From NCBI GenBank assembly GCA_050012255.1, contig JBEKHN010000001.1, positions 160,001 through 224,000 of the forward strand: DNA of 64,000 bases, in the 5' to 3' direction. The notes beneath the pieces are model-generated. The model did no database searches. It saw nothing but the letters and a program-made list of their open reading frames with translations, and was not told the origin of the DNA. The DNA comes from Candidatus Bathyarchaeia archaeon. Its GTDB lineage: Archaea > Thermoproteota > Bathyarchaeia > Bathyarchaeales > Bathycorpusculaceae. A program made the translations under genes and the position numbers. The first letter of the stretch is position 1. Every line of letters starts with the position of its first letter. Shown one piece after another: positions 12,088-55,171 of this stretch.

Positions 12088-12274
12088 CCCTTTCTCCTAC
12101 TAGTAGTTGGTTCAATCACCAAATATCATTTGTGGAGAAATCTTCTATAGCATCGTTTTGTATCCGCATGATTCACTGATTTTAAATAGCGCGCGCTCAG
12201 CTAACTCCTATTCTTCTTCTGTAGGTGTTTGTACGCAGTCGGTTACTGGATAAATGAACGCTTCACGGTTCGAG

Positions 12275-14242
12275 CTATGGAATGTGTTGGTTGAAGTGGC
12301 CTGAGAGTAATATGGCGTCGTAGATGTCCACGGTGCCGTCGCAGTTTATGTCTGCGTTGGCGTTCCACTTTCTCATGCCTGGACTGGAGTTGAAGGCGCC
12401 AGATAGCCTTATGGCGTCATAGATGTCAACAGTGCCATCGCCGTTTATGTCGCCAGAGATGCCAACGTAGATTGTGCCGCCCGTCAGGTTGTTGTCTGAC
12501 GTGTCTGTTTCGTTCAAGACGGACCAAGCATAGACGCTTATCGTGTAGTTGCCATAAGCAAGACCGGCGGTGTTAATTGTGAAGGTGATGGTCGTGGAAT
12601 TTCTGCTCGTCAGGGTTACTTGTGTCTGATTGATTGCAGTTGTGTTAGTGTAGACTGTGACGTTGAAGGTCTCTGACTGTTCGCCATAGTTCAGTATTTT
12701 TGCACTCATGTTCATGCAATATCCTTGACCGACGGTTGGCATTGGCAGGCAACCATTCTTAGAAGTTGCGGCATACGTTATCCCGATGTCATGCGGTCCA
12801 GCATAGGGCTTCATAAGCGGATAATTATCCGTGTTGTTTAGATCGATAACGTATGGAGTGTCACCTATTCCATCGCTGCCAGTCTTATTCTGATAAGTCC
12901 CACTATACAAGTCTGTCCCAATGTAGTCGCTCCAGTAGTTTCCGCCAGAAGGATAACCATCATCCCAAACGTTTATCGATGATGACCCATAGATCCAAGT
13001 TTGTACAGCATTGTCTACGAAGCTGTTATGATAAAGGCTGTTATTGGCAGACCACTCCAAATAGATTCCGCGACGGCCAGATGCTATGTTATTTTCTAAG
13101 ATAATGTTGTAACAGGATTGATAGAGATCGATACCGCTGCCTCCATACCATACAGGAATCCATCCATAATCAGTGTCCGTTATATTGTTTCCAATAATTC
13201 TGTTGTTTGAACAGCCCCAAAGTCCGATACCCCAACCGTTGCGTGCTATATTGTTTTCAATGATGCAATTGGTAGATGCATAGTTCAATGAGATGCCCCT
13301 CCAGTTGTTTGTTATATTGTTTTCAGATATTGTGTTGTTTGAAGAGGAGAGGGCTATGGCATACTCGTTGTTTAGCGCTATGCCACACCCGTTGTTTGTT
13401 ATGTTGTTTCCTGAGATTGTGGTGTTGTTTGTCTCCCATAGTTGAACGCCAATGCTAGTGTTGGATAGGTTGAGGTTTTCCACGGTCACGTTGTTGCATT
13501 TGACGAGTATGACTTGCCCAGCATCCTCAACCGCATAGTCTGACACTTCCTCAAGATAGACTATGGGTTTGCCGTTCACCAAGTTATCAGTCACCACATT
13601 CCCATAGGAATCAGACACTACTAAGCCGCCATTGACAAACGTGTTCCCGCTTACGCTGTTGTTAGAAGAATAATCGAGACAGATGCCATACCCGTTGTTT
13701 GCTGTTATGTTGTTTCCGCTTACGCTATTGTTAGAAGAAGAAGAGAGCCAGATGCAATGCCAGCTGTTTGCTGTTATGTTGTTTCCAGAAATGCTGTTGC
13801 TTGAAGAAGAGTAAAGCATGATGCCATTCCCGTTGTTTGCTGTTATGTTATTTCCACTTATGTTGTTATAGTTTGAAGATCCAAGGAGGTAGATGTCGTA
13901 CCCGAAACCTCTGATGTCCGTGTTTTTGATCGTCACATTGTTTCTTCCAGAAAGATCTATCCCTCTGTACTCCCAACCTCCACCATCTCCTTGTAGCGTG
14001 TAGCCTGCCCCGTCAACCACAATGTTGTCTCTTTCCACGGCAATCTCGTCAAGAATGTTACCCGCAAAAGTGTAGGTGACATTGTCAAACGTTGTTATAG
14101 GTGCATCTGGCGGGTCTATGCTTCCGTCAGCCCTAATGTAAATGGTTCCACTTGCTCTGACGGGTTGAATTCTAAGCGCCAGTGCCAACATGCTCATTAC
14201 AAGCAAAAACAGCATTACTCCAGAAACGGTCTTCCGCAACAA
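12275..14242 (-). CDS. Secreted NosD/beta-helix protein with C-terminal dockerin-like domain
   Basis: TTG start after GGAGG, signal peptide resembling the neighbour (LRKTVSGVM), GNNITAN repeats, WDDGYPSGGNYW, GDINGDGTVDIYD repeat. Confidence 0.85.
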   Translation of the reverse strand: MLRKTVSGVMLFLLVMSMLALALRIQPVRASGTIYIRADGSIDPPDAPITTFDNVTYTFAGNILDEIAVERDNIVVDGAGYTLQGDGGGWEYRGIDLSGRNNVTIKNTDIRGFGYDIYLLGSSNYNNISGNNITANNGNGIMLYSSSSNSISGNNITANSWHCIWLSSSSNNSVSGNNITANNGYGICLDYSSNNSVSGNTFVNGGLVVSDSYGNVVTDNLVNGKPIVYLEEVSDYAVEDAGQVILVKCNNVTVENLNLSNTSIGVQLWETNNTTISGNNITNNGCGIALNNEYAIALSSSNNTISENNITNNWRGISLNYASTNCIIENNIARNGWGIGLWGCSNNRIIGNNITDTDYGWIPVWYGGSGIDLYQSCYNIILENNIASGRRGIYLEWSANNSLYHNSFVDNAVQTWIYGSSSINVWDDGYPSGGNYWSDYIGTDLYSGTYQNKTGSDGIGDTPYVIDLNNTDNYPLMKPYAGPHDIGITYAATSKNGCLPMPTVGQGYCMNMSAKILNYGEQSETFNVTVYTNTTAINQTQVTLTSRNSTTITFTINTAGLAYGNYTISVYAWSVLNETDTSDNNLTGGTIYVGISGDINGDGTVDIYDAIRLSGAFNSSPGMRKWNANADINCDGTVDIYDAILLSGHFNQHIP

Positions 14243-14627
14243 TTCGAACCTCCTTCCTCCAAAGTCTCGATCAACGCGCGTCGATAAAAGAGTTTTGAAT
14301 AGGTCATCCAACATCATCCCGTTCACGGTTTCTATTCGCACCATCTGTAATGCGGACTCAGGTGCGATGCTCTGCTCAAAATATTCAATCAGCCTCAAAC
14401 GACCTTCGCACCTATGCACTCTGTCTAGCTCTCAGCATAGTCTATTGCGTCTTTTCCTCTTGCTGGCTAGAAGAAGGCTCCTCCGCCGTTGTAGCACTTC
14501 CCCATTGAGAGGCGCGAGCTTCTTTCTGCTGGTCAAAGTTTAGATTAAAGAGCATAACAAAGTTGGAAACTGCATCCGATCTCTCGCTCTTCAGAGAAAA
14601 AAGATGACTGAAAGTGTTTCTGCGCCA

Positions 14628-15884
14628 CTACGGCCAGAGACCCAGCGTCCTAATCGCCTCGGCTACTCTTCCCACACCGAGCATCAACGCCCCCGTTCGC
14701 ATGTCACTCTCCTCTTCCCTGGCCGTCTTGTGAACGTCGTTGAAAGCCTTGATCATCTTGCCCTCCAGTTTCCGGTTCACATCCTCCAACGTCCAATGTT
14801 CTCGCGTCAGATTCTGAACCCACTCAAAGTAGCTCGTCGCAACGCCTCCAGAGTTTGCCAAGATGTCTGGAATGAGAACGATTCCCTTCTCGTGAAGAGC
14901 TCTGTCGGCTTCAGGCGTTGTCGGCCCGTTTGCACCCTCGACAACAATTTTGGCTTTGACCTTGTCTGCGTTCGTTTTCTTTATCTGGTTTTCTAAGGCT
15001 GCGGGGATAAGTATGTCGCATCTTGCTTCAAGGACATCCTCGTTCGTTATGTTCTGGCTTCCCTTGTAGTTGATCACCGAACCCGTTTTCGATTTGTGCT
15101 TGTAGACATCGTAAGGGTTCAGACCCCTTGCAGAGTAGATTCCTCCTACTGAATCACTCACTGCAACGACCTTGGAACCAAGGTCATAGGCTATCTTGGC
15201 AGCGTTCCAGCCCACGTTGCCAAAGCCTTGCACCGCGACCGTGGCTCCTCTAAGCTTCAGGCCTAACTGCTTCGCTGCTTCTCTTGCGCATACTACCACG
15301 CCGAGTGAGGTGGCTTCGGCTCTGCCTTCTGAACCGCCGATGCTTATGGGTTTCCCCGTGACACATTCTGGAACGCTGTACCCTTTGATCTGGCTGTAGG
15401 TGTCCATTATCCAAGCCATGGTTTGAGCGTCGGTGTACACGTCCGGTGCGGGCACGTCGCGATACGGCCCAATAAAATCGAAGAGAAGCGTCGTGAATCG
15501 TCTAGTCAGTCGCTCCAGCTCGCCTTTCGACATTTTCTTTGGGTTGCAGCACACTCCACCCTTGGCGCCGCCGTACGGAATGTCCACGACCGCACATTTC
15601 CACGTCATCCAAATCGCTAAGGCAGTGACCTCATCAAACGTGACATTCGGATGATACCTTATTCCACCCTTGAACGGCCCCCTCGCATCCCAATGCTGCA
15701 CTCGGCAACCCGTGAAAACGTTAATGTTGCCATCGTCCATTTTCACCGTGATGGAGACTATAAGGGATCTCTTGGGACGTGCTAACATGCAGTGCAATCC
15801 GGGGTCAAGGTCGAGTTTCTCAGCAGCTATCCTCAACTGCTCCAATGCTACTGCTAACGCTGTCTGCGTCTCTACCATAGACAA
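14628..15884 (-). CDS. gdhA: Glutamate dehydrogenase (Glu/Leu/Phe/Val family)
   Basis: GPFKGGIRYHP, GGAKGG, DVPAPD, QGFGNVG, EGANGP, SYFEWVQN. Confidence 0.93.
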   Translation of the reverse strand: MSMVETQTALAVALEQLRIAAEKLDLDPGLHCMLARPKRSLIVSITVKMDDGNINVFTGCRVQHWDARGPFKGGIRYHPNVTFDEVTALAIWMTWKCAVVDIPYGGAKGGVCCNPKKMSKGELERLTRRFTTLLFDFIGPYRDVPAPDVYTDAQTMAWIMDTYSQIKGYSVPECVTGKPISIGGSEGRAEATSLGVVVCAREAAKQLGLKLRGATVAVQGFGNVGWNAAKIAYDLGSKVVAVSDSVGGIYSARGLNPYDVYKHKSKTGSVINYKGSQNITNEDVLEARCDILIPAALENQIKKTNADKVKAKIVVEGANGPTTPEADRALHEKGIVLIPDILANSGGVATSYFEWVQNLTREHWTLEDVNRKLEGKMIKAFNDVHKTAREEESDMRTGALMLGVGRVAEAIRTLGLWP

Positions 15885-15967
15885 TTACTCCAACGATCCT
15901 CTGTCTGCTTGACGTTATTAATATTACGCGTCGCTTCAGAAATCAAAAAAGAAAAATAGGGTTGGTG

Positions 15968-17575
15968 CTAGCCGAGGATTCTTTCGACTGCATCTTTTTC
16001 TACTTCATCTGGCATCGGTACGCCTGTAACTTTTGCAGCTCTTTCGGACAGGCTCATCAGGTCGTTTCTGCCGATAAGATCCAGCTTCCACTTTCTGTTT
16101 CCAGCCAGCATTTGCTTGAGCCCGACGCCGATTCTGTCTGTTAGGTAGGTGTAGACTCCGACGGCTTCCCATGGTATCTCCTTGAAGCGCGCTCCGTACT
16201 TAGCCTTCAAATCCGGTGCGGCAATGAAGAATTTGTCTGGCGTAGCCCCGAACTTGTCTGCAAATGCCTTTGGCAGCTTCCCTTCTTCAGCTAGCTGCTT
16301 GAAGTAGCTTCCTTTGAAAGCTGCGGTTATCGGCGAGCGTCCGAGAAGTACTGCCTTGATGAACGGGCCTTCTCCGAAGTTGCTCATCGCGATCGCCTTG
16401 AAGATGGATGTCTCTTCTATGAAGCCTCCTGCCATAACCAGGTCTGGAACATAGCGTCCCTTCTTCTTCAGTATCTGTGCACATTTTAGAACCAAAGCTT
16501 CCAAGTAGACTGTCGGTATGCTCATTTCGTCCATCATCGGTACAGGGCTCATGCCTGTTCCGCCGCCTGCGCCGTCGAATGAGACATAATCGATTTTCGC
16601 TTCAGACGCTATCTTCATGGTGTAGGCAACGGCTGAAGGCCTGTAGGCCCCCGTCTTCAGTGTGACATGCTTTGCGCCTTGCTTTCTCAGCCACTCGATG
16701 TCCTCGACAAAGCTTTTCTCCTGTGGAATGCCCACCCTGCTGTGCCTTTCAAAGGACTTGAATACTCCATCCTTGAAAGCTTCTTGAACAGTCTTGTCTT
16801 CCGGATCGGGAATCACGATATAACCTCTCTTTTTCAACAATATGGCTTTTTCCAAGTCTCTGACTCGCACTTCGCCGCCAATTGCCTTTGCACCCTGTCC
16901 CCACTTTCTCTCGATGACGTTCACTTCCAGCTTTGAGATAGCGTAGACATCGACGCCAAGCCTCTGATCTTCCACGTTTGTTTGAACAACCACCTCTCCG
17001 TACTTCTTGTCCCAGAACTTTCGGAACAGATCCACTCTTCGCTTCAACTCTTCCGAATGGGTGACTTTTCCGCCGGTGATCTGGGCCTTAGCGTCCATAC
17101 CACAAACATTCTCTCCAACGATTACGGACGCACCGGAGAGCGCAGCTCCGACAGCCAAGCCTTCCCAGTTCAGTCTTGCAACGTCTGTTGAACCGAATGC
17201 ACCGTTCAGGATCGGCACTTTCAACGGTATGCCACCCACTTTGGTCTCTATGTTCACGTTCGGGAAAACGGTCAGGTCCGAGTTAGGCTCAATGCCCTGC
17301 GCATCGAATAGGCCTGCTTGTATGTTGAAGTGCGACCAGTCCAAACCGAAGTCTTTCAGTGCACCAGCGGTGCTGTAACCAAACTGCACCGGTTCTGGAT
17401 AAAGTGCCTCTCTTCCCCTGAAGGCTGACATGCTTATTTCACACAAGAATGGACAGTCTCGAATGCAAATGGGGCACATTCCGCTCGTCGGGCTTGTATC
17501 TTTGACACGCGTTTGCGTTCCACACGTTGACTTGCCGTTCAGATAAGCACTGTTTTTATGCACACGTTCCGACAT
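15968..17575 (-). CDS. FMN-binding glutamate synthase family protein (stand-alone, N-terminal Cys cluster)
   Basis: CPICIRDCPFLC, ERKWGQGAKAIGGE, KTGAY, DGAGGGTGMSP. Confidence 0.85.
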   Translation of the reverse strand: MSERVHKNSAYLNGKSTCGTQTRVKDTSPTSGMCPICIRDCPFLCEISMSAFRGREALYPEPVQFGYSTAGALKDFGLDWSHFNIQAGLFDAQGIEPNSDLTVFPNVNIETKVGGIPLKVPILNGAFGSTDVARLNWEGLAVGAALSGASVIVGENVCGMDAKAQITGGKVTHSEELKRRVDLFRKFWDKKYGEVVVQTNVEDQRLGVDVYAISKLEVNVIERKWGQGAKAIGGEVRVRDLEKAILLKKRGYIVIPDPEDKTVQEAFKDGVFKSFERHSRVGIPQEKSFVEDIEWLRKQGAKHVTLKTGAYRPSAVAYTMKIASEAKIDYVSFDGAGGGTGMSPVPMMDEMSIPTVYLEALVLKCAQILKKKGRYVPDLVMAGGFIEETSIFKAIAMSNFGEGPFIKAVLLGRSPITAAFKGSYFKQLAEEGKLPKAFADKFGATPDKFFIAAPDLKAKYGARFKEIPWEAVGVYTYLTDRIGVGLKQMLAGNRKWKLDLIGRNDLMSLSERAAKVTGVPMPDEVEKDAVERILG

Positions 17576-17790
17576 CTTTCTCTCTCCCTTCAAATTTTCA
17601 GTTTTTTAGCGCAAAGTGAGTAAAATCAGTCAGCATTTAAGCGTTACTTTGAGCGAGAAAGGAAACATCCTTCAGAACCAACGATTTTTCCAACACAAAG
17701 CCACGAAAATAGAGGAATGCAGGCTTCTCTGCTCAAATATACTTTTATTAGCACATGAAAACTACGTATAAACTAGGAGGATAATTCAGG

Positions 17791-18762
17791 TTGAGTTTTG
17801 AGATGTGGGCTGAAAAGTACAGGCCCAAAAAGTTGAGCGAGATGGTCGATCAAAAGGAGATTGTCGAACGCTTAAAGAGTTTCACTAAGTCAAGAAACGT
17901 GCCGCATTGCATCTTTGCTGGCCCGCCTGGAACAGGGAAGACAACGGCTGCTCTCTGCCTAACAAGAGATCTTTATGGTGATGTGTATAGAGAGCATATT
18001 ATGGAGTTGAACGCGAGTGACGAGAGAGGAATTGATGTTGTTCGGGAAACTGTGAAGACTTTTGCTAGAGTGAAATCTATCGGAGACATCCCGTTTAAGG
18101 TAATGATTCTGGACGAAGCGGACAACATGACCTCAGACGCACAGCAAGCTCTTAGGCGAACGATGGAACGCTTCACGGCAACATGCCGTTTTGTCCTGTG
18201 CGCAAACTATAGCGGAAGAATAATAGAACCCATCCAGTCAAGATGCGCACCCTTCCGTTTCACTCATTTGCCCAGAGAAGAGCAGGACCGCTATTTGAAG
18301 GAGATTGCTGAAAAAGAAAAATTGAAGATCTCATCTGATGGCTTAGACGCTATCTTTGAAGTCTGTGGCGGAGACTTGAGAAGGGCAATCAACACCCTGC
18401 AGTCTGCCGCGTCGTTGAGTAAACCCATAGATGCAAAAATCGTGTATTCAATAACCGGAAGGGCCAGTCCGGCAGACGTGCAAAAAATGATCAAGGTTGC
18501 CGTGGATGGCGATTTTGTGGAAGCGAGAAAGCAGTTGCGCGACATGATTCAGAAATACGGCGTGTCTGGAAGTGACCTGATTCGCCAAATCCACACAGAA
18601 ATCTTCAGATCAGACACGCCTGAAAAGTGGAAGATCAGGCTTGCGGGCATCGTTGGTGAAGTGGACTATAGACTTGTTGAGGGCGCGGATGAAGAGGTGC
18701 AGTTGAGCGCACTGTTGGCTAAGCTTGTTGAAGCAGGTGACGAACTAAAGAACGCAGAATAG
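17791..18762 (+). CDS. rfcS: Replication factor C small subunit
   Basis: WAEKYRP, GPPGTGKT, ELNASDERG, LDEAD, QSRC. Confidence 0.96.
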   Translation: MSFEMWAEKYRPKKLSEMVDQKEIVERLKSFTKSRNVPHCIFAGPPGTGKTTAALCLTRDLYGDVYREHIMELNASDERGIDVVRETVKTFARVKSIGDIPFKVMILDEADNMTSDAQQALRRTMERFTATCRFVLCANYSGRIIEPIQSRCAPFRFTHLPREEQDRYLKEIAEKEKLKISSDGLDAIFEVCGGDLRRAINTLQSAASLSKPIDAKIVYSITGRASPADVQKMIKVAVDGDFVEARKQLRDMIQKYGVSGSDLIRQIHTEIFRSDTPEKWKIRLAGIVGEVDYRLVEGADEEVQLSALLAKLVEAGDELKNAE

Positions 18763-20031: not shown

Positions 20032-20047
20032 AAAAGAGCTGTCTAGA

Positions 20048-20374: not shown

Positions 20375-20414
20375 CGGCTAATCACCTTTTCGCACTTCTC
20401 ATTTGAGTCAGCTA

Positions 20415-21122: not shown

Positions 21123-21129
21123 TTTTCAT

Positions 21130-23838: not shown

Positions 23839-23856
23839 TGCGCAAGATAAAGAGTT

Positions 23857-28897: not shown

Positions 28898-29250
28898 GAA
28901 CATTCCCTGCTTCGCGTTTTGACCCGTCTAACACGCTTACTCCCCACCCTCCTAGGTTTTTCTCCAGACGGTACTGTTGATCTAGTCCTTAAGCTGAAGC
29001 TGGCGGGCTCGTCTTGCTTAGTCGTCTTAACCTCAAAATGGGGGGTGGAGGAACTTTGAAGGCTCGTGCACCTGACAACGTTCGGGTACGCGGGTCGCTT
29101 TTTTAGCGTTGAAAAGGAAGAGGGGCGCGTTCGCATTGGATATGAATGATTGACTACCTGAGGCGTTTCGCGGCGCGCGCTATAGACAATCACCACTTTC
29201 ATGAAAAAGCTTTAATGTTTAGGGCAAAAATAGAGTTGGGGAGTGACATT

Positions 29251-36162: not shown

Positions 36163-37257
36163 CTAGTCTTCTCTCCACTTGAATATTCTCGCTGCAGCTG
36201 CGAAGGCGACGATCGTGATTATCGAGACTACTATCAGGTCTATCGTTGCCTGTGCATAGTTGTTGTATATCATAACCCCGTTGAGTCCGTCGATGATATA
36301 GAAGAGGGGCAGGACATGTGCCAAGTATTGCAGATACGTGGGCATGAGCGAGATTGGGAAAAACGTGCCTGAGAGAAACATCATTGGGAAGGTTACGATG
36401 TTTCCGACGACGCTGGCTGTTTCGGTGCTCTTTGAGATGGTTCCCACCAGCATGCCCAGCGAAGCGAAGAACATCGGTCCAAGTATCAGGAACGGTATGA
36501 GCCACAGTGAGAGCGCAACATGTGCGCCGAAGGCGATGACCCCAACGGCAACCATCAATAGAAATGACGCCACTGACAGGAGAATATAGAAGAGTACTTT
36601 GGAGGCTAGCCACTCGATCTTGGTGAGAGGAGTCAAAGATAACTGTTTGAAAAGCTTTGTTCTCTTGTACTCGGAGGATATGTTCACTAGGGAAAACATC
36701 GGACTGATGAGTATTGAAAAGCCGATCAGGCCCGGAACGAGGAAATCGATGTATTTGGTCACCTGAGAATTGGCTGTAGTCTGAGTTATACCGATGATCG
36801 GTGAACCCCCCGCGCGCGCTAGGTTAAACCCGTTTACCACTCCGTTTACGGTTCCGCTCACGATGGCGCTGGAGCTTTGAGAAGGATTGCCATAGAGTGT
36901 CACGTTGACAGGCTTGCCGGTTGCGTAATTGGCCGAGAAATCTGGTGGAATGATTATCCCGTCGGACGCGGAATGAGCTGAGAGGTATTGAGAGAAGTCT
37001 TCAGAATTATTCACCAATACCAGGCTAACTGTGCCTGTCTTGGTAAGGTTGCCCAGGAAAAAGTTGGAGATTGGACCTGTGTCTTGGTTTTGAACGTAGA
37101 CCGTTATCGTCCCGGAAAAGCCTGACGAGAAAATAGCACCGAAAATAAGTATAAGAATCACTGGGAAAATCAGACCGAAGAACAATCCTGCCGCATTTCT
37201 CAGATATCCCCGGCCGAACAGGCGAAGGTCAGAAACGATTCTTCTTGCACTGGCCAT
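36163..37257 (-). CDS. ABC-2 type transporter permease
   Basis: Multiple TM helices, FLVPGLIG, FLSGTFFP. Confidence 0.9.
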   Translation of the reverse strand: MASARRIVSDLRLFGRGYLRNAAGLFFGLIFPVILILIFGAIFSSGFSGTITVYVQNQDTGPISNFFLGNLTKTGTVSLVLVNNSEDFSQYLSAHSASDGIIIPPDFSANYATGKPVNVTLYGNPSQSSSAIVSGTVNGVVNGFNLARAGGSPIIGITQTTANSQVTKYIDFLVPGLIGFSILISPMFSLVNISSEYKRTKLFKQLSLTPLTKIEWLASKVLFYILLSVASFLLMVAVGVIAFGAHVALSLWLIPFLILGPMFFASLGMLVGTISKSTETASVVGNIVTFPMMFLSGTFFPISLMPTYLQYLAHVLPLFYIIDGLNGVMIYNNYAQATIDLIVVSIITIVAFAAAARIFKWRED

Positions 37258-39240: not shown

Positions 39241-39469
39241 CGTTTCACCACACAGCTATCCACTCTATTTCTCGCCTGACTCTTAGAGTTAATGCTTCGA
39301 TCCAATCCACTTCTCACAACCTAATAGGAAGAGGCGGTTCCTGCAGGAAGTGCAGATATCACAATTGTGCGCCAGTAATCTCCAATGTTGAGCCACCGAT
39401 GGAAATGTCCAATACGCACGATAGTTCAACAGCATAAACTAGACCGCACACACGGGCAGAGTCAGCTTC

Positions 39470-39684
39470 GGCAGCCAGAGAAATCACGAATGCTAAACAG
39501 AGGATTAAGGTGAGTAAGAATGGTTCTTATCTTGTTTCTGGCGGAATTCCCATGGTCGAACAGATAATCCGTACCGACGCCGAAGGAACTCCCATTGAGT
39601 GGCGTGCTGGAAAGAGATACCCATTACAGGAAAAACCATTACAGGAAAAATGGCCTTTGCCGTTGTGGGCGATAGCGCGCGCGC
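39470..39684 (+). pseudogene. Remnant of a CDGSH iron-sulfur domain protein
   Basis: RIKVSKNGSYLVSGGIP...WRAGKRYPLQEK, then frameshifted LCRCG (39655-39669), ending at (GC)5; 15-bp tandem duplication at 39621-39650. Confidence 0.65.
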
Positions 39685-40058
39685 CAGCGCGTTCCTAAAT
39701 TCTTTCGGGAAGCAGCTTGCGCTACTCATTCTGCTCTTCAACCATATTTGGCTCCAAATATGCATGATACATTGAAACCGAGGAGGGGTACCAAAGGCCG
39801 CCCCACGTTCATGCGCATGAAAAGAAGACTCTGCTGCATCGCGGACAAATACAACGTTGGGTCACATAACATACCCGGGGGGGTGTGAGAGCAAGCAAGC
39901 ACCCAGCCAAACCGTGACGGTAACTATCGAGAAACGTCATGCCTTCCTCTTGAGCGGAATCTAGGAATTCAGGAACAAGCATAGGCGCTTTCCGAAAATG
40001 CTTTAGCGCCCTGAGAAAGCTATTTTTCGCTGTCTCCGCATTGTTATCGTGTCAGCTT

Positions 40059-43720: not shown

Positions 43721-44086
43721 AGCCTTTCACAATTCCGTCACTAGACACTTCTTCGAAAATACTGTGAGTTATGGGATATAAGACTTAAGACCTTGTTGAC
43801 AGATGTTTGACCCGCAGCACTCGAGCAACGAGAACAGCTTTCCATCCTTTCATTGTACCTTCACAAAGGGGATGCCGCACGCTCACGTTAACATTGCCAG
43901 GTTGTCCACACGTGGCGCGACTGTTTTCTGAGTTTTGTTCCGAGAAAATGGATTTTAAGGCGCGCGCAGGCAGCGAGTCAAGGATTAAAGGTCAAACCGC
44001 ATTCTCTCAAGCGCGCAGTTGCGCCTCCAGTTGCGACTAATTTAAATAGCACCTACTCCTAAACGCCTAGGCAAGAGGTTAAGAAA

Positions 44087-45562: not shown

Positions 45563-45704
45563 GTCGCAACGTTCAATATTCTCATTCCCACAAGTAACTC
45601 TGCAGAATCGAGATATTGCTTTTTTGGAGTAGCTACGGATTAAGTTCCGCTGCTCGTCTCTTGAGGTCCTTCAGCTTGTCCTTTTTCTGAGAACACAAAT
45701 GTCG

Positions 45705-46220: not shown

Positions 46221-46324
46221 GCATGGCGTTACCGTTGCGTGTCCTTCCTGTGGTCTTCATCATGAACAGAGTGTGTTAGTAAACTTTATCCTCTCGTATA
46301 AGTCTTGAGAATCGTCAATCCATC

Positions 46325-47185: not shown

Positions 47186-47192
47186 TTATGAG

Positions 47193-48569
47193 TTGTCGTC
47201 CAACCTGTGCAGAATAATCGTTGAAGACTTTCTGAAGAGTTCATGGCCTTGTGTCGAAGCCCTGGTGCGAGAACTCGGCACGTTCAAAGATGATAGAAGA
47301 AAACCCGTCACCCTGTATTACCTCAAGAACGGGCAGAGAAACGACGTCACGCTTGACAGCTCACACTTCTTCCTAAGATGCTCAGTTGAGTACTCAAACC
47401 CGCAGCTCACGGTTGAAGAGGTTCAGGGAATCATAGCCACACGTCTGCTTGAGGTCTGCGGCAACTACTTTCACCAGCGTGGGTTGCATGAGCCGACCAT
47501 GCAGGACACGGAAGAAATATGCGCATTATTGAAAAAGCCTCCTGACGGAGTTGTCGTCTCTTTCCTGCTGAACACCGACGATATCGAGGCGGACAGGTAC
47601 TCGATGAACCCGCTCAAAGAGTCGATAGTAAACAGCGGGCAAAGCGCCTTTCCGGCCGCTGCTGTGAAGACGGAGAAGCTTGAGATAGACCAGCAGTTCG
47701 CACATAAGTATGAAGGGTCACTTTTCTGCAAGGGCGAAGTTGAAAGGATAGACCGCCACCTCAAGTCTTGCAACAACAGCTACGTGAACATGATAGACGC
47801 TGTAAAATATGAACACTTAGAAAAGCTGTCAGAGGCTTTCGGCATCGACCTACTTCTTTACTCGATGCGGTTGCCATTAAGTGTTCTGGAAAAAGAGTCA
47901 TCAGACGGCTTGCTGCACTACATCATAAGAGAGGCTCACAAGGACTATCCGTCGGTTGAGCTAGTTTACAGATGCATGGGCAGAAGCATGAAGAACCTGA
48001 CTACACTTTTGACGGTTCCACATTCGCCGAAGGGCTATGGGTCAAAACGTGCCGTGAGAGGGAGGATCTACTTCGACGGGACTAAGCTTAAAAGCGTCAA
48101 AGTTGATTATCGAACGACACTGCTTTACCCGAATGCGATCGACCCTTCTGACATCAGCCTAGCAAAAGCTGATGACAGTTTCACGGTGGAAGGTGAAAAG
48201 TTGGTGAATTACAACTTCAAGGAAACGCCGTCTTCACCCCAGTTCTTCCTGTACTCTCTGACGTCACCGGAAAACGCTGTTCTGTGGCACGGCATCGGAG
48301 CCTTCGGCGCTTCAGAGTTGTTGAAGAGCTATACTACGACGCGACTGGCATGCTCAACGGGCTCCTTGTTCAAGGATCTGAACGGAAAATACGGCGTTAC
48401 AGTCAGGATTCCCCTACAGTTCAACCTCGTGCCAAAGAACATGTGGTTCCATCCTTTACACCGCAACATTGACGCAAGCGTCGGATGCGTTGGAAACTTG
48501 AAAGACCTGGCTGACCTAGGAATGAAGATGGAGCATCTTCCAACAGAACAATATATTCGGAAAGAATAA
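47193..48569 (+). CDS. Uncharacterised 458-aa soluble protein
   Basis: Long ORF; TTG after GGTGA; tight spacing with both neighbours; no motif recognised. Confidence 0.8.
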   Translation: MSSNLCRIIVEDFLKSSWPCVEALVRELGTFKDDRRKPVTLYYLKNGQRNDVTLDSSHFFLRCSVEYSNPQLTVEEVQGIIATRLLEVCGNYFHQRGLHEPTMQDTEEICALLKKPPDGVVVSFLLNTDDIEADRYSMNPLKESIVNSGQSAFPAAAVKTEKLEIDQQFAHKYEGSLFCKGEVERIDRHLKSCNNSYVNMIDAVKYEHLEKLSEAFGIDLLLYSMRLPLSVLEKESSDGLLHYIIREAHKDYPSVELVYRCMGRSMKNLTTLLTVPHSPKGYGSKRAVRGRIYFDGTKLKSVKVDYRTTLLYPNAIDPSDISLAKADDSFTVEGEKLVNYNFKETPSSPQFFLYSLTSPENAVLWHGIGAFGASELLKSYTTTRLACSTGSLFKDLNGKYGVTVRIPLQFNLVPKNMWFHPLHRNIDASVGCVGNLKDLADLGMKMEHLPTEQYIRKE

Positions 48570-48575
48570 TATAGC

Positions 48576-49202
48576 ATGATGGTGTATACCATGTTTTTCA
48601 AACAGATCAAATACCGAGGCGACAACTTCTCCTACGTCATCGCAGATGAGAACAGCAGAGAAGCCGCGGTCGTTGACCCCAGTTACAACGTCGACGCAAT
48701 AAGCCTTTTGTTGCACGGCCAAAACCTGACGGCTAAGTATGTCATAAACACGCACAGTCACGGGGACCACACTGCGGGCAATGAAGACATCAGGTCAGCC
48801 TTCGGCGCAAAAATCGTCGCCCACAAGCTCTCAAAAGCCAGGAAGGACACAGCAGTGGTTGAAGGCGACATTTTGAAGCTTGGCAAAGTCTTAATCAAGG
48901 TCGTTCACACTCCAGGACACAGCTCAGATAGCATATGCTTACTGGTCGATGGCAAAGTACTCACCGGTGACACTCTCTTCGTAGGCGAGTGCGGAAGGAC
49001 AGATTTGGTCGATGGAAGTTCTGAGGACATGTACCACAGCCTCTTTGACAAGCTGATGAAACTTGACGACAACGTCGAAGTCTATCCGGGCCACGACTAC
49101 GGACCGAAGCCCAACTCAACAATCTGTGAAGAAAGGCGGTCGAACTACACACTTCAAAAGCGTACCCTCGAAGAATTTGTCGCTTTCATGGGACAGCCAT
49201 AG
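48576..49202 (+). CDS. MBL-fold hydrolase (glyoxalase II / persulfide dioxygenase-like)
   Basis: THSHGDH, TPGH, GDTLF, GRTD, PGHDY. Confidence 0.92.
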   Translation: MMVYTMFFKQIKYRGDNFSYVIADENSREAAVVDPSYNVDAISLLLHGQNLTAKYVINTHSHGDHTAGNEDIRSAFGAKIVAHKLSKARKDTAVVEGDILKLGKVLIKVVHTPGHSSDSICLLVDGKVLTGDTLFVGECGRTDLVDGSSEDMYHSLFDKLMKLDDNVEVYPGHDYGPKPNSTICEERRSNYTLQKRTLEEFVAFMGQP

Positions 49203-49301
49203 ATTCCCGACCGCTCCGGCTGTGCCTGTCTAACGGTCAACTTTATTATGAACATGTTGGTAAGAGACTGAAACGTGTACGCGGCTGAAAGAGGAACAGG
49301 A

Positions 49302-50735
49302 ATGTCCAACAAAGCTGTTTCCTTCTCGATTGACATGGAAATTCCCGAAAGCTACATGGGAAACTTGTTGGACTTCATTTATCAAAAATACCTCATGCCC
49401 CATGAACAAAGGTTTGCCAACATCTCAAGAGTCACGGTCGGCGGCCGTTCTTCCCTCACCTTCACAACTCTGGATCAGTCTGGAACACGTGTTCTAGAAG
49501 TGGCGGTCAAGGGTGGGAAGCCGATTGACGTAAACATGACGCCGTTAAGTGAAAACGTCCCGGAAGAAACGATAACCCAAGTTAGGCAGGACCTCGTGAT
49601 CGCAGTTCAATCATTTGAAGAAAAGGTTAGAGAGGGCACACTCTTCTTTGCGTGGCGAGAAGGTGAGAGGATTGTGCCAGAAAAGATTTCTGGCAAAGAA
49701 AAGAAACCGTTGAACCGCATTTTTCTCGAGACGCAAGTTTTCCTCGTCGTCATATTCATCACGCTAGGCTTGTTCCTGTTCTTCCTTATCGGCCCGTACA
49801 CGCCGATTGTCCTGCTGACGTTTCAGTTCATCTTCGTCGTGTATTCACCAAAGATTATTGAAAGAATATCAGACTGGCGAATCACCGAAGAGAACCCGAC
49901 CATACATATTCTTGAATACAGCCTGCCGATTGAAGGACAGGACGATTTCAGGCAGAAGTACCCTCCTGAAAAAGTTGCCGAAATGAAGAAAGAGATCTAT
50001 CAAGAGACAATCGCCAAGAACGGGGAAATCAACTGCGAGACGACTGGGCAGATTTTTAGAAAGTATGGGCTTGAGTGCAGCCCAGAGAATCTGTCTTCAA
50101 CAAAGGTGAACGTTTACGAACTAGTGAAAAAGGTAGCAGACAAATTCCATTTTAAAGTGCCCAAGATCGTGGTGTCCAACACTTTGGCTCCTAACGCAGC
50201 TGCCTCTGGCCCAAGCCCAAGCCGAGGAGTAGTTTTGATTACTACGGGGGCTCTCGTGCAACTTGAGGAAGACGAGCTTCTCAGCATCTTGGGACACGAG
50301 TTTGGACACCTAAAGGGACGTGATCCCTTCTGGCTCTACGGACTATCTGCTGTCCAATACCTTCTATGGTTCTACGTGATCTTCGGATTCTTTCCCACAA
50401 GCTCCTTTGTTCTTCTCCTCATATATTTCTGGGTGCTGTCAACGATCACGTATTTCATCGCCAAATTCTTCGAAGCAAGGGCAGACTTAACGTCAGCGAT
50501 CGTGATGGGACAACCCAACATTCTGGCCAACGCCCTAGAAGAAATAGGGTTCAAAAGACTTCTCTATGAGCGGATCCCCTCGTATCGCGTTCAAGAATGG
50601 GTAAGCTTTGATCCACATCCGCCTATCTACTTCAGAGTCGAAAGACTGAGAAAGTTTGGAGCTCTAACAGAAGTAAAACACCCACTTCTTCAATCCGCGA
50701 GGGACGTTACCAGAGGCTTCCTGAACAGCTTATAG
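49302..50735 (+). CDS. M48/HtpX-like membrane Zn metalloprotease with N-terminal extension
   Basis: PNAAA, GHEFGH, EARAD, HPP. Confidence 0.9.
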   Translation: MSNKAVSFSIDMEIPESYMGNLLDFIYQKYLMPHEQRFANISRVTVGGRSSLTFTTLDQSGTRVLEVAVKGGKPIDVNMTPLSENVPEETITQVRQDLVIAVQSFEEKVREGTLFFAWREGERIVPEKISGKEKKPLNRIFLETQVFLVVIFITLGLFLFFLIGPYTPIVLLTFQFIFVVYSPKIIERISDWRITEENPTIHILEYSLPIEGQDDFRQKYPPEKVAEMKKEIYQETIAKNGEINCETTGQIFRKYGLECSPENLSSTKVNVYELVKKVADKFHFKVPKIVVSNTLAPNAAASGPSPSRGVVLITTGALVQLEEDELLSILGHEFGHLKGRDPFWLYGLSAVQYLLWFYVIFGFFPTSSFVLLLIYFWVLSTITYFIAKFFEARADLTSAIVMGQPNILANALEEIGFKRLLYERIPSYRVQEWVSFDPHPPIYFRVERLRKFGALTEVKHPLLQSARDVTRGFLNSL

Positions 50736-50775
50736 ACTCACTGGGTGTGCTTGCTTAAACGGCGCAGCTGCCCAT

Positions 50776-51093
50776 TCAAACGTCGATTAAGACTTGGTCT
50801 TCTTCTATCCTTACTCTATATGCAGGTTCAGATTTTTGTGCAGGTCCTTTCACCACGGCTCCCGTTAGAACGTTGAAAGCTGAACCGTGACACGGACACG
50901 TTACGTTCTCTCCCCTCAGCGTGCCGTCTGAAAGCAAGCAGCCCATGTGTGTGCAACGATTGCCAATCGCGTAGTACTTGCCTCCTATGTTGGCAACGCA
51001 GATCTCTTTTCCTGCCGCGCCGGCATCGATCATTTCACCTGGTTTCAGGTCCTTTGTCGAAGCTACTTTCACAAACCCCATCCGTGAATTCAC
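50776..51093 (-). CDS. Rieske-type ferredoxin
   Basis: CTH and CPCHGS. Confidence 0.93.
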   Translation of the reverse strand: MNSRMGFVKVASTKDLKPGEMIDAGAAGKEICVANIGGKYYAIGNRCTHMGCLLSDGTLRGENVTCPCHGSAFNVLTGAVVKGPAQKSEPAYRVRIEEDQVLIDV

Positions 51094-51407
51094 CTCTCTC
51101 AGTCAGCTATTATCAGTCGAGTTAGAACATAAGAGATTTGTCATTGTGTTGTGTCCACGAATTTCACAGGAAAAACTAAATTCAGATTATAAACGAGTAA
51201 ATGTGTGGTTACACGGATGGTGGAGCAACCAATTTTGATCATTGACAGCCCTTGAGCAGATTTTGTCTAGAGGAATCGAATAGAAGTTTGTTTTCATCGC
51301 GTTTATAAAGGAGAGTTGCCAATTATTAGGGCGCGGTAGCGTTCTGTTGAGAACATGAGACAGAGACACAACGCAACACACAATTAAAAACAAAAGGAGT
51401 GAAAAAA

Positions 51408-51695
51408 ATGTCGGAGAGTTCGAAGATTGTTTTCATTGGCAGGAAACCAGCAATGAGCTACGTCCTGGCGATCATTACCAGCCTATCGGCATCCAACGGC
51501 AAAGAGATAACACTGAAGGCAAGAGGACAAGCAATCACGACAGCGGTTGACGTTGCTGAGATAACGAGAAGCCGCTTCCTCAAGGACCTGAAGGTTTCAA
51601 AGATCGCCATAGGTACAGAGCAGATGCCCGCCAGGGAAGGCGAAAGCGGTGCAAGAGCGGTTTCTACAATGGAAATAACGCTGGCAAAGGATTAG
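51408..51695 (+). CDS. albA: Chromatin/RNA-binding protein Alba
   Basis: VFIGRKP.MSYV, LKARGQAI..AVDVAE, VSTMEI. Confidence 0.93.
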   Translation: MSESSKIVFIGRKPAMSYVLAIITSLSASNGKEITLKARGQAITTAVDVAEITRSRFLKDLKVSKIAIGTEQMPAREGESGARAVSTMEITLAKD

Positions 51696-51729
51696 AAACA
51701 GAAATCCTAAAAAAACCAAGTACCCATTT

Positions 51730-51760
51730 GGCGAGTACCTCGCCTTTTCTTTCTTTGTAT
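51730..51760 (+). terminator. Putative terminator after alba
   Basis: GGCGAG-TAC-CTCGCC hairpin followed by a T-rich tract. Confidence 0.55.
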
Positions 51761-52037
51761 GACTTCTGTTGCACGTGAATTGGCACACGTTGTGGTCTGC
51801 GCATCATACGGGGCGATAAACCTCAGAACTTCTGTAAGACTAATTATCACTTCAACGTCAAACTGCGCTGGCTAGGCAGCCATGACACAAGTCGGCTTTT
51901 GAGCCTATGTAATTTTCAACCCGAACATGACGCCTTGATCGCCTTCTTCTTTTTTTGCAACGTTGGCTTTGTCCTCGTCAAAGACGGAAAGACAGATATT
52001 CCAGTCTTGAGATTCGAATGGTAGGGGAGAAGGGCGG

Positions 52038-52655
52038 TTGCATAACAAAGTACCCTACTTGCTCTTGGTACTAATGCTGATGCTAACCGTTGGCACATTT
52101 GAATTCCTGCACCTGAGGAACTCTGTTCCCAGCGTTTCTGCAGTCGAGGCTACAGGAAGCATCGGCATCTACTGGGATGCAGGTTGCACCAAGACAGTGT
52201 CTTCAATAGACTGGGGTGTTCTGTCGCCAGGGCAGACAAAGGAAGTTGTAGTTTACGCTCGGAACGAAGGTAATCAATCAATTCTCCTGACAGTCACACC
52301 GATGAATTACAGCCCAGCGAATGCTTCAAAGTATCTGAATTTCACTTGGACCTGTGTGAACACAGGGATTGCGGTAAGCAAAACTGTTCAGGTTACACAA
52401 AGCCTTTATGTTTCTCCGAACGTTGGAGGAATTTCTGATTTTAGTTTCGACATAATTTTCAGTGGGAAAGGGTATATTTTAGGGGACATAAATGGGGATG
52501 GCTTCGTCGACATATATGATGCTTTAGTGCTCGGATCAGCATTCGGATCGACGTCACGAGATAGCAACTGGAATCCGAACGCTGACCTGAATAACGATGG
52601 TGTTGTAGACATTTTTGATTCTATTATATTGGCTCATGCAATGTATCCAGTGTAA
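52038..52655 (+). CDS. Small secreted protein with C-terminal dockerin-like domain
   Basis: Signal peptide; GDINGDGFVDIYD...ADLNNDGVVDIFD. Confidence 0.82.
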   Translation: MHNKVPYLLLVLMLMLTVGTFEFLHLRNSVPSVSAVEATGSIGIYWDAGCTKTVSSIDWGVLSPGQTKEVVVYARNEGNQSILLTVTPMNYSPANASKYLNFTWTCVNTGIAVSKTVQVTQSLYVSPNVGGISDFSFDIIFSGKGYILGDINGDGFVDIYDALVLGSAFGSTSRDSNWNPNADLNNDGVVDIFDSIILAHAMYPV

Positions 52656-52915
52656 CATGCTTAGGTCAGCGCGCACGTCTTCGTGTTAGAAAAAGAAATT
52701 CGACAATGTAGTTCGTTCAAAACCGCAAAGACCAGGCCGTTCCTTTTCTTTGAAATTGTAAAAGGCATGGTAGTGATTTTCTTCAACGCGCCAAGGAAAC
52801 ATCATTCCATAAGATTTCTGATATCTGCGGACCTCTCTTCTCTCTATGATCTCTTGAGATCGACAAAGTCTCCATAAATTATCTTCAGTTCTTTCTCGTT
52901 CGATGATTTTTGCTG

Positions 52916-53584
52916 CTATTCCCTGTTGGAAAGTATAACGATGTAGTCAGCAGTGTCTGCGCACATGTCAGCGGCCTGTTCAATGAACTCGATCAAATCG
53001 TCAAAGATTACCATTGTCCCCGCGTTCATTTGCCCTCCGTATTTGATGAACAATTTCTTTGTCTTAAGATAATCGTCGTCAATTCGATGCTCGATCTCTT
53101 CAACTTTTTTAGAACCTTCTGTCGCTTCTGCCGGGGCCACCGAGATCTTCTCGATGCTGTTATGTAGGGCACGGGCACAATCCACCAGGTCCGATGTCAT
53201 ACACACCGTGTTTTCGCATAGCTCCTTCGGAATCTGAGTGTCTCCGAGCATTTCCATGCACCTTGCAGCGTCTTTCACATCATCAGCCAGAGTGTCGAGC
53301 CTTTTCACAAGATGAAGCAGGTCCTCACGATAGTCAGCAACCAAAGCCGCACCCTTTGACAGCTCCTTGAAAACGTCCATTCGCAGACGGTCCACCTCTT
53401 CCTCAGTCTTGAAGAGAATCTCAATCCGCTGCATCGCTTCCTTTGTCCTCCCTTCTGCAATGCCCTTCGTTGCCTGATGTAACAGCGTTACAGTATCGAT
53501 TGCTTTCGCTATCTGCTCTTGAGCCAAGTCCAAAGCTTTTGTCCTGCGACGCTTTTCAAACCATGCATAGCTTCTTTTTTCCAA
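52916..53584 (-). CDS. DUF47 / PhoU-like phosphate transport regulator
   Basis: EEEVDRLR, REDL, EHRID, ADMCADTAD helical repeats. Confidence 0.85.
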   Translation of the reverse strand: MEKRSYAWFEKRRRTKALDLAQEQIAKAIDTVTLLHQATKGIAEGRTKEAMQRIEILFKTEEEVDRLRMDVFKELSKGAALVADYREDLLHLVKRLDTLADDVKDAARCMEMLGDTQIPKELCENTVCMTSDLVDCARALHNSIEKISVAPAEATEGSKKVEEIEHRIDDDYLKTKKLFIKYGGQMNAGTMVIFDDLIEFIEQAADMCADTADYIVILSNRE

Positions 53585-53658
53585 ATTCTACATCTCCACT
53601 AAAACTACCTTTCCACATGTGCTTATAACCTTTCTCAGGACCAAAACTTCAGCAAGCT

Positions 53659-54306
53659 CTACCTCAGAATTATTTTATCGCCACTTGCGATGTAATAAAT
53701 CGCCTCACCAACATAAGTTGCGTGATCCGCTATTCTCTCAAGGTATCTAACCACCAAAAGGTTGCAGACTATGCATTTTGTGACAGGAGGAGCCTTTGAC
53801 AACTTGTCCAGATAGTTGGAGTATATCTCGTCAACCTCGCTCTCAGTGCTTGCAAGAGACTTGGCCAATTCTCCATCATTAGTTCTTAGGGCTTCTATGC
53901 TCGTCCGAACCATACGCAACGTCATCTCGGTCATCCTTTCCATGGTATCCCATGAGTACGCGCATTTCTCTGAGGCAGCAAATTTTCGGTGGGTAAAAGA
54001 GGTGTCCCAAGCATACCGGCCGTACCTTTCAAAATCGTACGCAATTTTCATGTAGGAATTAATTATCCTCAAGTCCGACGCAACAGGCTGATACTTCACT
54101 ATCAGCTCGAATGCCTTGTCTTCAACACTGACGGTCATCGTAACCAGCATTTCCGACAGTTCTCTGACTTGTTCACTTACGTCCCTGCCATCCATGAACC
54201 CTGCGATAGATGCCCTAACTGCTTTTTCAGCGGCCTCACCCATCTTTAAGACGACAGCCGTTAGTTGTTCTAAACCGATATCTAACAGTCTGCTCAAGGT
54301 TTTCAC
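53659..54306 (-). CDS. phoU: Phosphate signalling protein PhoU
   Basis: QPVASDLR, ERYG, LERIADHA. Confidence 0.9.
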   Translation of the reverse strand: MKTLSRLLDIGLEQLTAVVLKMGEAAEKAVRASIAGFMDGRDVSEQVRELSEMLVTMTVSVEDKAFELIVKYQPVASDLRIINSYMKIAYDFERYGRYAWDTSFTHRKFAASEKCAYSWDTMERMTEMTLRMVRTSIEALRTNDGELAKSLASTESEVDEIYSNYLDKLSKAPPVTKCIVCNLLVVRYLERIADHATYVGEAIYYIASGDKIILR

Positions 54307-54342
54307 CTAACCGAATTTTCCCGTGATGTATTTTTCCGTAAG
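54307..54342 (-). pseudogene. pstB: Last 11 codons of the phosphate ABC ATPase PstB
   Basis: LTEKYITGKFG* matches the PstB C-terminal TExYITG(R/K)FG, abuts the phoU start and begins at (GC)5. Confidence 0.75.
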
Positions 54343-54351
54343 CGCGCGCGC

Positions 54352-54714
54352 AAACAAGCGGAATGAAGAAACGAGAAGACTTCAGCTGACAGGCGGCTCA
54401 ACGTACGTAATCTCTCTACCCAAGAAATGGATAATTCAGAATCAACTGAAGAAGAGCAGTACGATTCTCGTACGTTCAGAAGACGACGGATCATTGTCAA
54501 TAATGCCGTCAGACTTGGCAAAACAAGAACCACTGCAAGAGGCCTACATCATGGTTTCTCCAAAGGACATGCCTGACCCGATAATACGGAAAACAGTTTC
54601 TGCCTACCTAGTCGGTTACAACACAGTGCACATCAAAGCCAAGGACGGACAGCAACTTTCTTCAAAGCAACGGAGTTCATTGAAGAGCTTTACGCGCGAC
54701 CTGCTCATGGGAAC
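54352..54714 (+). pseudogene. N-terminal fragment of archaeal AbrB-PhoU phosphate uptake regulator
   Basis: ETRRLQLTGGSTYVISLPKKW, SAYLVGY, LLMGT; no start codon after the first (GC)n run and homology ends at the second. Confidence 0.8.
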
Positions 54715-54848
54715 CGCGCGCGCTAAATTCGCGAAAACCTTGTTCACTTTTGCACTCATTGAGGACACTTGCGCTCTACTAACAAAGCCTCTTTCTGCCT
54801 TCAGGCGCATTTACGTTCCAGATCCACTCAACAGCATCAGCGCGCTCT

Positions 54849-55171
54849 CTAGTTGACGATCTTCTCAAGTTCTATGAGAAAATGTTCGTATTGCTTAATT
54901 CTGAGTCTCCAAAAGTCTACGTCGGCGATGTCAAGACCGACGATCTTGCCGATCTTCTGTGGAGAGATACTGCTGCCAACTGAAAGAATCCTCTTGAGTT
55001 TGGGAACAAACTCTCTGCCTTCTTCCAGGTATTTCTGATAGAGAGCATAGACGAACAGTTGGGCATAAACGTATGGATAATTGTAGAATCTTCGCGCGCT
55101 GAGGAGTCTGTGGTGCTCGGAAAAATCTCAGACAGGTCCCAGGCAATGTCCCCTTTTGTCACATGAATCAT
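54849..55171 (-). pseudogene. pepF: Oligoendopeptidase F (M3B) remnant with large internal deletion
   Basis: N-terminal IAWDLSEIFP joined out of frame at CGCGCGC (55093-55099) to C-terminal RFYNYPYVYAQLFVYALYQKY..GSS.SP..GLD...FW. Confidence 0.8.

Follow-up and report, generated by a model that had tools for sequence, protein, structure and literature searches.

A GC filler where DNA was lost in a Bathyarchaeia genome: the probable trace of an undescribed route for joining broken ends

In the stretch of DNA analysed here (the window; 64 kb, G000:C1:160001-224000), the remnants of several broken genes end exactly at short runs of alternating G and C, which raises the question of how such runs came to stand where DNA has been lost. 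The window belongs to a metagenome-assembled genome of Bathyarchaeia (G000; 2,351,129 bp in 38 contigs, 48% G+C). Its gene content is archaeal (MCM, GINS, RFC, Alba, ribosomal protein S3Ae and Hdr/MvhD-type redox genes), and the public records nearest to it are metagenome-assembled genomes of Bathyarchaeia that come from peat, soil and sediment. Comparison with relatives shows that, after the loss of a segment, the ends were rejoined without homology and the junction gained a stereotyped, self-complementary GC filler. The alternating-GC runs are probably repair scars, and the filler looks like the mark of a way of rejoining broken DNA that has not been described. Nonhomologous rejoining is poorly known in archaea and Bathyarchaeia are uncultured; a constant scar provides a natural, genome-wide record of break repair and gene loss.

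Junctions J1 to J3 in the window

A sequence-only reading of the window had listed its GC runs and described four gene remnants that end at them, namely a CDGSH gene, pstB, a regulator fragment (54342-54715) and pepF at 55093. All the runs are present and all four remnants hold. Three of the runs form junctions in the region of pstSCAB and pepF, where the window was compared with two congeners, G001 (a single-contig closed chromosome, independently assembled) and G007, at 92-96% identity around the junctions. The features of this region are as follows.

54307..54341, reverse strand: the last ~12 codons (last 36 nt) of pstB, ending at 54342; the sole remainder of pstSCAB upstream of phoU
54342..54351: J1, a (GC)5 run; join 54342/54367, standing where G007 has 4035 bp and G001 has 4089 bp
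54367..54716, forward strand: fragment of an AbrB-PhoU regulator, ~residues 20-135 of 364, 95.7% identical to G007
54715..54723: J2, a CGCGCGCGC run; join 54716/54725, 8 inserted nt replacing 1034 bp of G007
54725..55091, reverse strand: 3' end of pepF (last ~53 codons) and downstream spacer, 83% identical to G007
55093..55099: J3, a CGCGCGC run; join 55091/55099, 7 inserted nt replacing 1478 bp of G007
55099..55237, reverse strand: 5' end of pepF (~first 31 codons), adjoining moaE

The DNA lost at J1 comprises the start of the regulator, pstS, pstC, pstA and most of pstB, all encoded in G007; J2 has lost the C-terminal two thirds of the regulator together with a spacer, and J3 residues ~32-524 of pepF, an M3 peptidase. 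Each junction contains 7-9 inserted GC bases, and none of the six breakpoints carries a GC run in G007 or G001. Since the intact relatives have no run at either breakpoint, the run in the window is inserted filler and not templated microhomology, which settles a point that the sequence-only reading had left to alignment with intact relatives. The long allele of J1 is present in all four relatives with which it was compared (G001, G007, G009 and G004), two of them only ~72% identical, so that this deletion occurred in the lineage of the window.

The junctions were also sought in Logan contigs from sequencing runs of three other studies (X2, X3 and X4); a further run, X1, spans all the junctions but may be the source sample. 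J1 is bridged by contigs of all three, J2 by X2 and X3 (the latter with G>A at 54716) and J3 by X2. Not counted as bridging are X4 over 54636-54857, where it has no contig, and X3 at J3, where its contig extends only 18 nt on the left side. That contig continues across the J3 run with an extra CG, and the length of the run is therefore polymorphic.

G001 has a CGCGCGCGC run of its own (oriented locus L102, 1147-1155) at the point where its homology to the window starts (~52915), while G007 aligns further left; this run looks like an independent scar of a sister species at the same operon.

GC runs across the genome and the class

Beyond the window, collinear BLAST matches between G000 and G001 were chained, and an indel was defined by a long allele of at least 50 bp and a short allele of at most 40 bp. 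Among the 69 indels found in 1.2 Mb of G001, the short allele has a junction run of at least 6 nt in 24, against 0.7 expected from random windows of the same sizes, and a run of at least 8 nt in 18, against 0.23. The enrichment at junctions for which the sequence-only reading had proposed a genome-wide search is thus present, and both genomes show it: 8 of the 28 short alleles that belong to G000 and 16 of the 41 that belong to G001 bear GC. At 21 of these 24 GC-bearing indels neither end of the long allele carries a run of 6 nt or more, the other three being insertions of miniature inverted-repeat transposable elements (MITEs). Because the long allele is free of runs in these 21 indels and at J1 to J3, the run was added and did not pre-exist as microhomology. 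An open reading frame (ORF) of at least 100 aa crosses the junction of the long allele in 10 of the 24, which makes the short allele a truncation and gives these indels the polarity of deletions.

The fillers at GC-bearing junctions measure 2-32 nt (median ~10), and at most of these junctions the long allele has no run within 50 nt. Several junctions (ev18, ev37 and ev42) fold a few native G or C bases into a run that still totals 8-10 nt. When eight longer fillers were searched by BLAST for ectopic donors, only the run, give or take a few nucleotides, matched, as by chance. The core of the filler is (GC)4 or (GC)5, usually as A(GC)nT and sometimes with 1-5 extra bases outside; at clean junctions such as ev26, AGCGCGCGCT, the flanking A and T belong to the insert.

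The same form characterizes the runs of the genome as a whole. GCGCGCGC is the commonest 8-mer of G000: it occurs 434 times where an order-3 Markov model predicts 31.2, and its 13.9-fold excess is the highest ratio among all 8-mers; the window alone holds 7 runs of at least 8 nt in 64 kb against ~0.85 expected (scaled from 31.2 GCGCGCGC per 2.35 Mb). Maximal alternating-GC runs fall geometrically in number up to 7 nt (7854 of 4 nt, 1735 of 5, 517 of 6 and 171 of 7), rise again at 8 nt (201, then 123 of 9 nt and 63 of 10) and drop to 2 at 11 nt. A precedes the run in 245 of 393 cases and T follows it in 222 of 393, which yields the consensus A(GC)4-5T. Beyond two positions on either side the flanks carry no signal, so the unit is 8-12 nt long with no conserved flanks, and 766 of 786 run flanks are unique DNA. 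On a crude gene map, 258 of the 393 runs of at least 8 nt lie outside ORFs, compared with 14.6% of 4-nt runs.

The runs mark homology breakpoints. Where at least one 200-nt flank could be mapped, few runs are collinear and of equal length with G001 (11 of 98 intergenic ones and 12 of 69 in ORFs), compared with random control sites (250 of 450 intergenic and 337 of 404 in ORFs). Run density in G001 is 0.48 per kb where G000 has no counterpart and 0.05 per kb in shared DNA, a difference of about 10 times, and 26 of the 79 runs mapped on both sides face a segment at least 50 bp longer in the other genome. At orthologous collinear sites, with a divergence of ~7%, about 25 runs keep at least 8 nt, 5 keep 6-7 nt and 13 have been lost by substitution; this retention is close to (0.93)^8, the expectation without selection. 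Older fillers often show decayed forms such as GCGTGTGCGC.

The signature extends to other families of the class. With run-rich genomes defined as those having at least 10 copies of AGCGCGCGCT and at least 5 times the count of the reversed control, 26 of 301 evenly sampled Bathyarchaeia genomes qualify, in six families (f1, f26, f27, f29, f35 and f36). In a 400-kb sample of G120 (family f26), run lengths show the bump at 8-9 nt, with A before 20 of 31 runs and T after 25 of 31; the run-poor relative G018 shows neither the length bump nor the A/T flank signature.

The sequence-only reading had also suggested a search for end-joining genes of the archaeo-eukaryotic primase, LigD and PolX types. 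Outside the window, G000 encodes a complete Ku-LigD operon (C10:11572-14557, locus L236) with a LigD-type primase-polymerase, Ku, and an ATP-dependent ligase fused to a 3'-phosphoesterase. Among 41 relatives the operon looked genus-linked, and the LigD phosphoesterase domain is nearly universal (36 of 41). Across the 301 genomes, the LigD polymerase domain (PolDom) occurs in 99, and the operon was rejected as a correlate of the motif since the two do not co-vary. G016 and G040 carry the operon with only 7 and 1 copies of GCGCGCGC, respectively. Ten of the 19 run-rich genomes with no PolDom match are at least 90% complete, absence from incomplete genomes being no proof. This lack of co-variation means that Ku-LigD is neither necessary nor sufficient for the signature.

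Other candidates were sought in a panel of four run-rich genomes (G000, G099, G115 and G251) and the run-poor G018. Protein-primed PolB (PF03175) is above the cut-off in G099 and G251 and absent from G000 and G115, with a weak sub-threshold match in G018. C5 methyltransferase (PF00145) was found in G000 only; N4 and N6 types were not searched. The two C5 methyltransferase genes of G000 lie at C7:4931-5887 and C6:37304-38281.

Repair scars weighed against other explanations

If the runs are repair scars, each 3' end at a break would be extended with GC repeats, and the self-pairing of (GC)n would make any two extended ends cohesive. A pairing of ~8-10 bp may suffice for sealing by a ligase; such a requirement would explain the sharp limit on run length, and it fits the folding of native G and C bases into runs totalling 8-10 nt at ev18, ev37 and ev42. 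The GC word may be written by a dedicated activity or copied from the hundreds of runs already in the genome, in which case the process would be self-reinforcing. Once formed, the scars decay by point substitution and slip by CG units, about as without selection, and they are preferred landing sites for a family of insertion sequences (ISs) and MITEs related to IS5, apparently with a 4-bp GCGC duplication.

A fuller version of this model can be put forward only tentatively: break healing independent of Ku and LigD would operate in several Bathyarchaeia families, a putative activity would write the fixed A(GC)4-5T with no template nearby, much as CCA-adding enzymes or telomerase do, so as to make the ends cohesive and ligatable, and the scars would seed an IS family that targets GC palindromes. 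The signature itself points towards an activity by which a fixed palindrome is written and DNA ends become cohesive; no precedent for this is known to us. In the accessible parts of the literature on GC repeats, and on filler or end-joining deletion junctions in archaea, no description of the signature was found. New findings are its distribution across the class, the absence of an association with Ku-LigD, the confirmation in independent metagenomes, the estimate of near-neutral decay and the IS5-like family that lands on scars.

Several points weigh against the repair-scar interpretation. Extension of the 3' ends and their annealing are inferred steps, and no intermediate is seen. Deletion polarity is established by four relatives at J1, by G007 alone at J2 and J3, and by ORF continuity in 10 of the 24 GC-bearing indels; the other 14 could be insertions into runs that destroyed the run. 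A run is absent from 45 of the 69 indels, which implies that other joining routes coexist. The comparison with G001 took in 1.2 of 2.35 Mb (51%), and the gene map consists of crude calls (greedy ORFs of at least 70 aa, covering 85% of G000). PolDom is present in 7 of 26 run-rich and 92 of 275 other genomes (Fisher p = 0.66). Searches of all five panel genomes for PrimPol (PF09250), the PolX palm (PF14792), reverse transcriptase (PF00078) and protelomerase (PF16684) gave no match. Of the end-joining genes suggested earlier, Ku-LigD was located and PolX was not; no responsible enzyme was identified among the candidates searched. Finally, the ends of the IS5-like elements always abut alternating GC, and do so at 5-8 nt even in run-poor f24 genomes. 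This last association, which also favours an origin of the runs from transposons, is read as target preference, and some doubt remains.

Transposon traces are the first alternative, one that we consider unlikely: an IS or MITE with GC-rich termini would insert, delete neighbouring DNA and then excise, either singly or as two copies forming a composite. A suitable family is present. Its IS5-family member, 1.08 kb with a frameshifted DDE transposase (DDE_Tnp_1), lies at G001:C1:389078-390161, with a degenerate copy on contig C24 of G000, and it has many MITE derivatives of 120-300 bp. The terminal repeat has ~137 matches in G000 to a degenerate pattern and 67 to a 15-mer at no more than 1 mismatch. 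At 28 of 32 5' ends in G000, the terminal-repeat core GCGTGTTCCTAAATT has TA, AT or CA directly before it and alternating GC outside that. GC flanks of exactly 6+6 nt occur in 22 of 48 complete MITE copies, and 11 of these 22 have TA on both sides, against 28 of 618 solo runs. Footprints of inverted-repeat elements are inherently palindromic, and the patchy distribution of the motif, even within a genus, resembles that of a mobile agent. Moreover, IS insertion-deletion-excision, in which deletions beside the element are followed by loss of the element itself, has been shown experimentally to produce deletions with hardly a trace of the IS (Kanai et al. 2022, PMC8860574).

The runs do not behave as such traces, however. 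Around the 618 solo runs there is no clear excess of target-site duplications for k=2-5 (the largest, at k=4, is 7 against 2.6 +/- 1.7), and left TA and right TA occur independently. The uniqueness of the run flanks also argues against a transposon origin, as does the mismatch in distribution: the search for the 15-mer core at no more than 1 mismatch finds no or almost no copies in the majority of the f26, f35 and f36 genomes that are run-rich (none in G090, G099, G110, G115 and G251, among others) and many only in G000 (67), and a search for DDE_Tnp_1 gave no match in G004 or G008, two run-rich congeners. Occupied and empty alleles, with 6+6 against 8 nt and 6+5 against 7, fit insertion into a run with GCGC duplication. 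The empty allele carries the run at all four polymorphic MITE sites, and for one locus a third genome, G007, was compared: it has a decayed TATCGCGAGCTA and no MITE, so that the run there is older than the MITE. In one messy pair of MITE-bearing and virgin alleles, ev52, the short allele lacks a run and the right end is degenerate. The J1 to J3 breakpoints of the relatives offer no GCGC or run on which an IS could land, and the footprint that annealed GCGC overhangs should leave, TAGCGCTA, shows no enrichment, with 10 copies. Excision footprints were therefore rejected as the main source of the runs on the duplication test, flank uniqueness, phyletic mismatch and the third-genome check. The family apparently inserts into GC palindromes with a 4-bp GCGC duplication, preferring those flanked by TA.

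Alternating CG tracts provoke deletions, and it may be asked whether older, Z-DNA-prone GC runs provoked the breaks or recombined with one another, the run at the junction then being old. The clustering of runs in variable DNA and the native G and C bases used within the runs of ev18, ev37 and ev42 would suit such fragile sites, yet their involvement is rather improbable, given that the long allele is run-free in 21 of the 24 indels, that all six breakpoints of J1 to J3 are run-free in G007 and G001, and that recombination between two runs needs ancestral runs at both ends, a situation seen only in the three MITE cases.

A functional intergenic palindrome held by selection, whether a protein site, a terminator or a counterpart of highly iterated palindromes (HIP) or repeated extragenic palindromes (REP), would account for the 14-fold over-representation, the location of most runs outside ORFs and the conserved A and T flanks, and the two C5 methyltransferases of G000 could be placed in the same frame. 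This explanation has very little probability: the loss of orthologous runs proceeds at about the pace that the absence of selection predicts, most runs lie in strain-specific DNA and at homology breakpoints and are not fixed relative to genes, no signal extends beyond two positions from the run, and no C5 methyltransferase was found in the three other run-rich panel genomes.

Chimerism of assembly or library at GC-rich palindromes, which the sequence-only reading had named as its alternative and for which a 38-contig assembly and one Logan contig (X4, record 23) stopping exactly at the J3 run might speak, is refuted for the three window junctions by the independent bridging contigs, and with runs shared at orthologous positions in the single-contig G001 and decayed copies in G007 it deserves almost no credence.

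The repair-scar interpretation also bears on what that reading had made of the runs, namely an end-joining or deletion process that uses or adds (GC)n ends and drives gene loss. The addition of (GC)n is borne out by J1 to J3 and by 21 of the 24 indels, but a driving role in gene loss goes beyond the data: the runs mark sealed breaks, and nothing shows that the process causes them.

Among known systems, the junctions resemble the fillers of nonhomologous end joining (NHEJ), polymerase-theta end joining and microhomology-mediated end joining of the synthesis-dependent kind (SD-MMEJ) in that non-homologous ends are joined after loss of DNA with a few new bases at the joint. Known fillers are random or copied from beside the break and differ from junction to junction, whereas here the same A(GC)4-5T stands at hundreds of junctions in several families. 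In SD-MMEJ, joining uses microhomology created by newly made DNA, and this DNA is copied from beside the break, hence with no fixed word (Yu and McVey 2010, PMC2943611). Of the features expected of end joining, the lack of shared homology between the ends and the extra bases are both found; random or locally copied filler is not.

Ku-LigD NHEJ is known from bacteria and a few archaea (the Methanocella type); G000 resembles these in encoding the full set in one operon, and differs in that the signature does not follow the presence of the operon. Transposon footprints share the constant short palindrome left at a site, but here there are no target-site duplications and no co-occurring candidate element, and the run predates the MITE where tested. 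The HIP1 palindrome of cyanobacteria spreads through coding and non-coding DNA by substitution. Like HIP1 and alternate highly iterated palindromes, the run is a GC-rich 8-nt palindrome, lineage-specific and the most over-represented word of its genome; unlike HIP1, it lies mostly outside genes, arrives by insertion at indel junctions and decays neutrally.

De novo telomere addition (chromosome healing) writes a fixed repeat onto a broken end. It is matched here by a fixed repeat that appears whatever the flanking sequence, and differs from what is seen in that both ends are rejoined via the repeat, the tract is 8-10 nt long and no reverse transcriptase was found in the panel. Insertion sequences of the IS1397 and IS621 type target repeated extragenic palindromes, and the IS5-like family similarly inserts into palindromes, preferring TA-flanked ones, although its target is a repair scar of 8-12 nt instead of a REP element and its duplication is GCGC. 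REP and bacterial interspersed mosaic elements (BIMEs) are themselves imperfect palindromes of 20-40 nt associated with a REP-associated tyrosine (RAYT, Y1) transposase, in contrast to the unit of 8-12 nt with no conserved flanks.

As repair scars, the runs of G000 would constitute a record of hundreds of dated events, and they would illustrate that scars of repair can become the habitat of a transposon family. They mark the boundaries of pseudogenes and islands and may help to annotate Bathyarchaeia metagenome-assembled genomes, and the patchy spread of the signature over 26 of 301 genomes in six families suits phyletic profiling for the responsible gene.

Other runs and genes of the window

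The fourth remnant, the CDGSH gene, and the remaining runs of the window are listed below.

12189..12196: solo GCGCGCGC run that separates two genes for NosD/dockerin proteins; without a collinear match in the compared half of G001
22613, 22929, 44011, 52669 and 54840: 6-nt runs
29173..29180: GCGCGCGC run between a TYW2/Trm5 gene and a Trm112-like gene
36811..36819: CGCGCGCGC run within an intact ABC-2 permease gene, the coding exception; conserved in G001
39510..39674, forward strand: remnant of a CDGSH iron-sulfur protein gene, frameshifted, ending ...CRCGR and then stop, exactly at the 39675 run
39675..39684: (GC)5 run at the truncated CDGSH end, abutting the left end of a MITE
39685..39989, forward strand: MITE of the IS5-like family, with left terminal inverted repeat CAGCGCGTTCCTAAATTC and right end GGAACAAGCAT followed by the decayed GC tip AGGCGC
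43960..43967: solo GCGCGCGC run in the 825-bp spacer between subtilase and ROK genes; conserved in G001

The 29173 run is decayed in G001 at the same length (ACGCCTGC), with a different upstream segment. The run at 36811 had been singled out as the sole exception to a junction or non-coding position, and it does lie inside an intact gene.

At the CDGSH locus, a perfect tandem duplication of 15 nt (CCATTACAGGAAAAA twice, 39621-39650) stands just before the frameshift of the remnant. Its homologue in G007 continues ESKNKPFCDGTH into the CDGSH motif and matches zf-CDGSH at 1.7e-17; the identity of the fragment rests on this homologue only, as the fragment itself has no Pfam match, no PDB match and no DNA-level paralogue in G000. 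In both G001 and G007 all of 39344-39988 is missing here together with the run, so that they give no guide to the history of the locus. In G001 the repeat abutting the 39675 run is present in dozens of copies. Nested within the MITE (~39743-39857) is another small repeat, and its 48-nt core (39743-39790) is found at 90% identity or more in all five congeners searched.

Elsewhere in G000, a repeated element combines a GC run with a MITE-like end (GCGCGCTGGCTTGTCCCTAAATTCGCTGATA) on one side and 2-3 tandem copies of TTTTGCATATACG on the other; its sites are C12:11219, C1:159576, C2:95436, C2:160989, C3:116594, C34:2791 and C13:34581. GCATATAC is over-represented 5-fold in the same genome.

The run at 12189 lies between the genes of two very large secreted proteins (1271 and 714 aa; window 8272-14419), whose domains comprise NosD/beta-helix repeats, a PQQ-type beta-propeller and a C-terminal dockerin, and a third dockerin protein is encoded in the window at 52038-52655.

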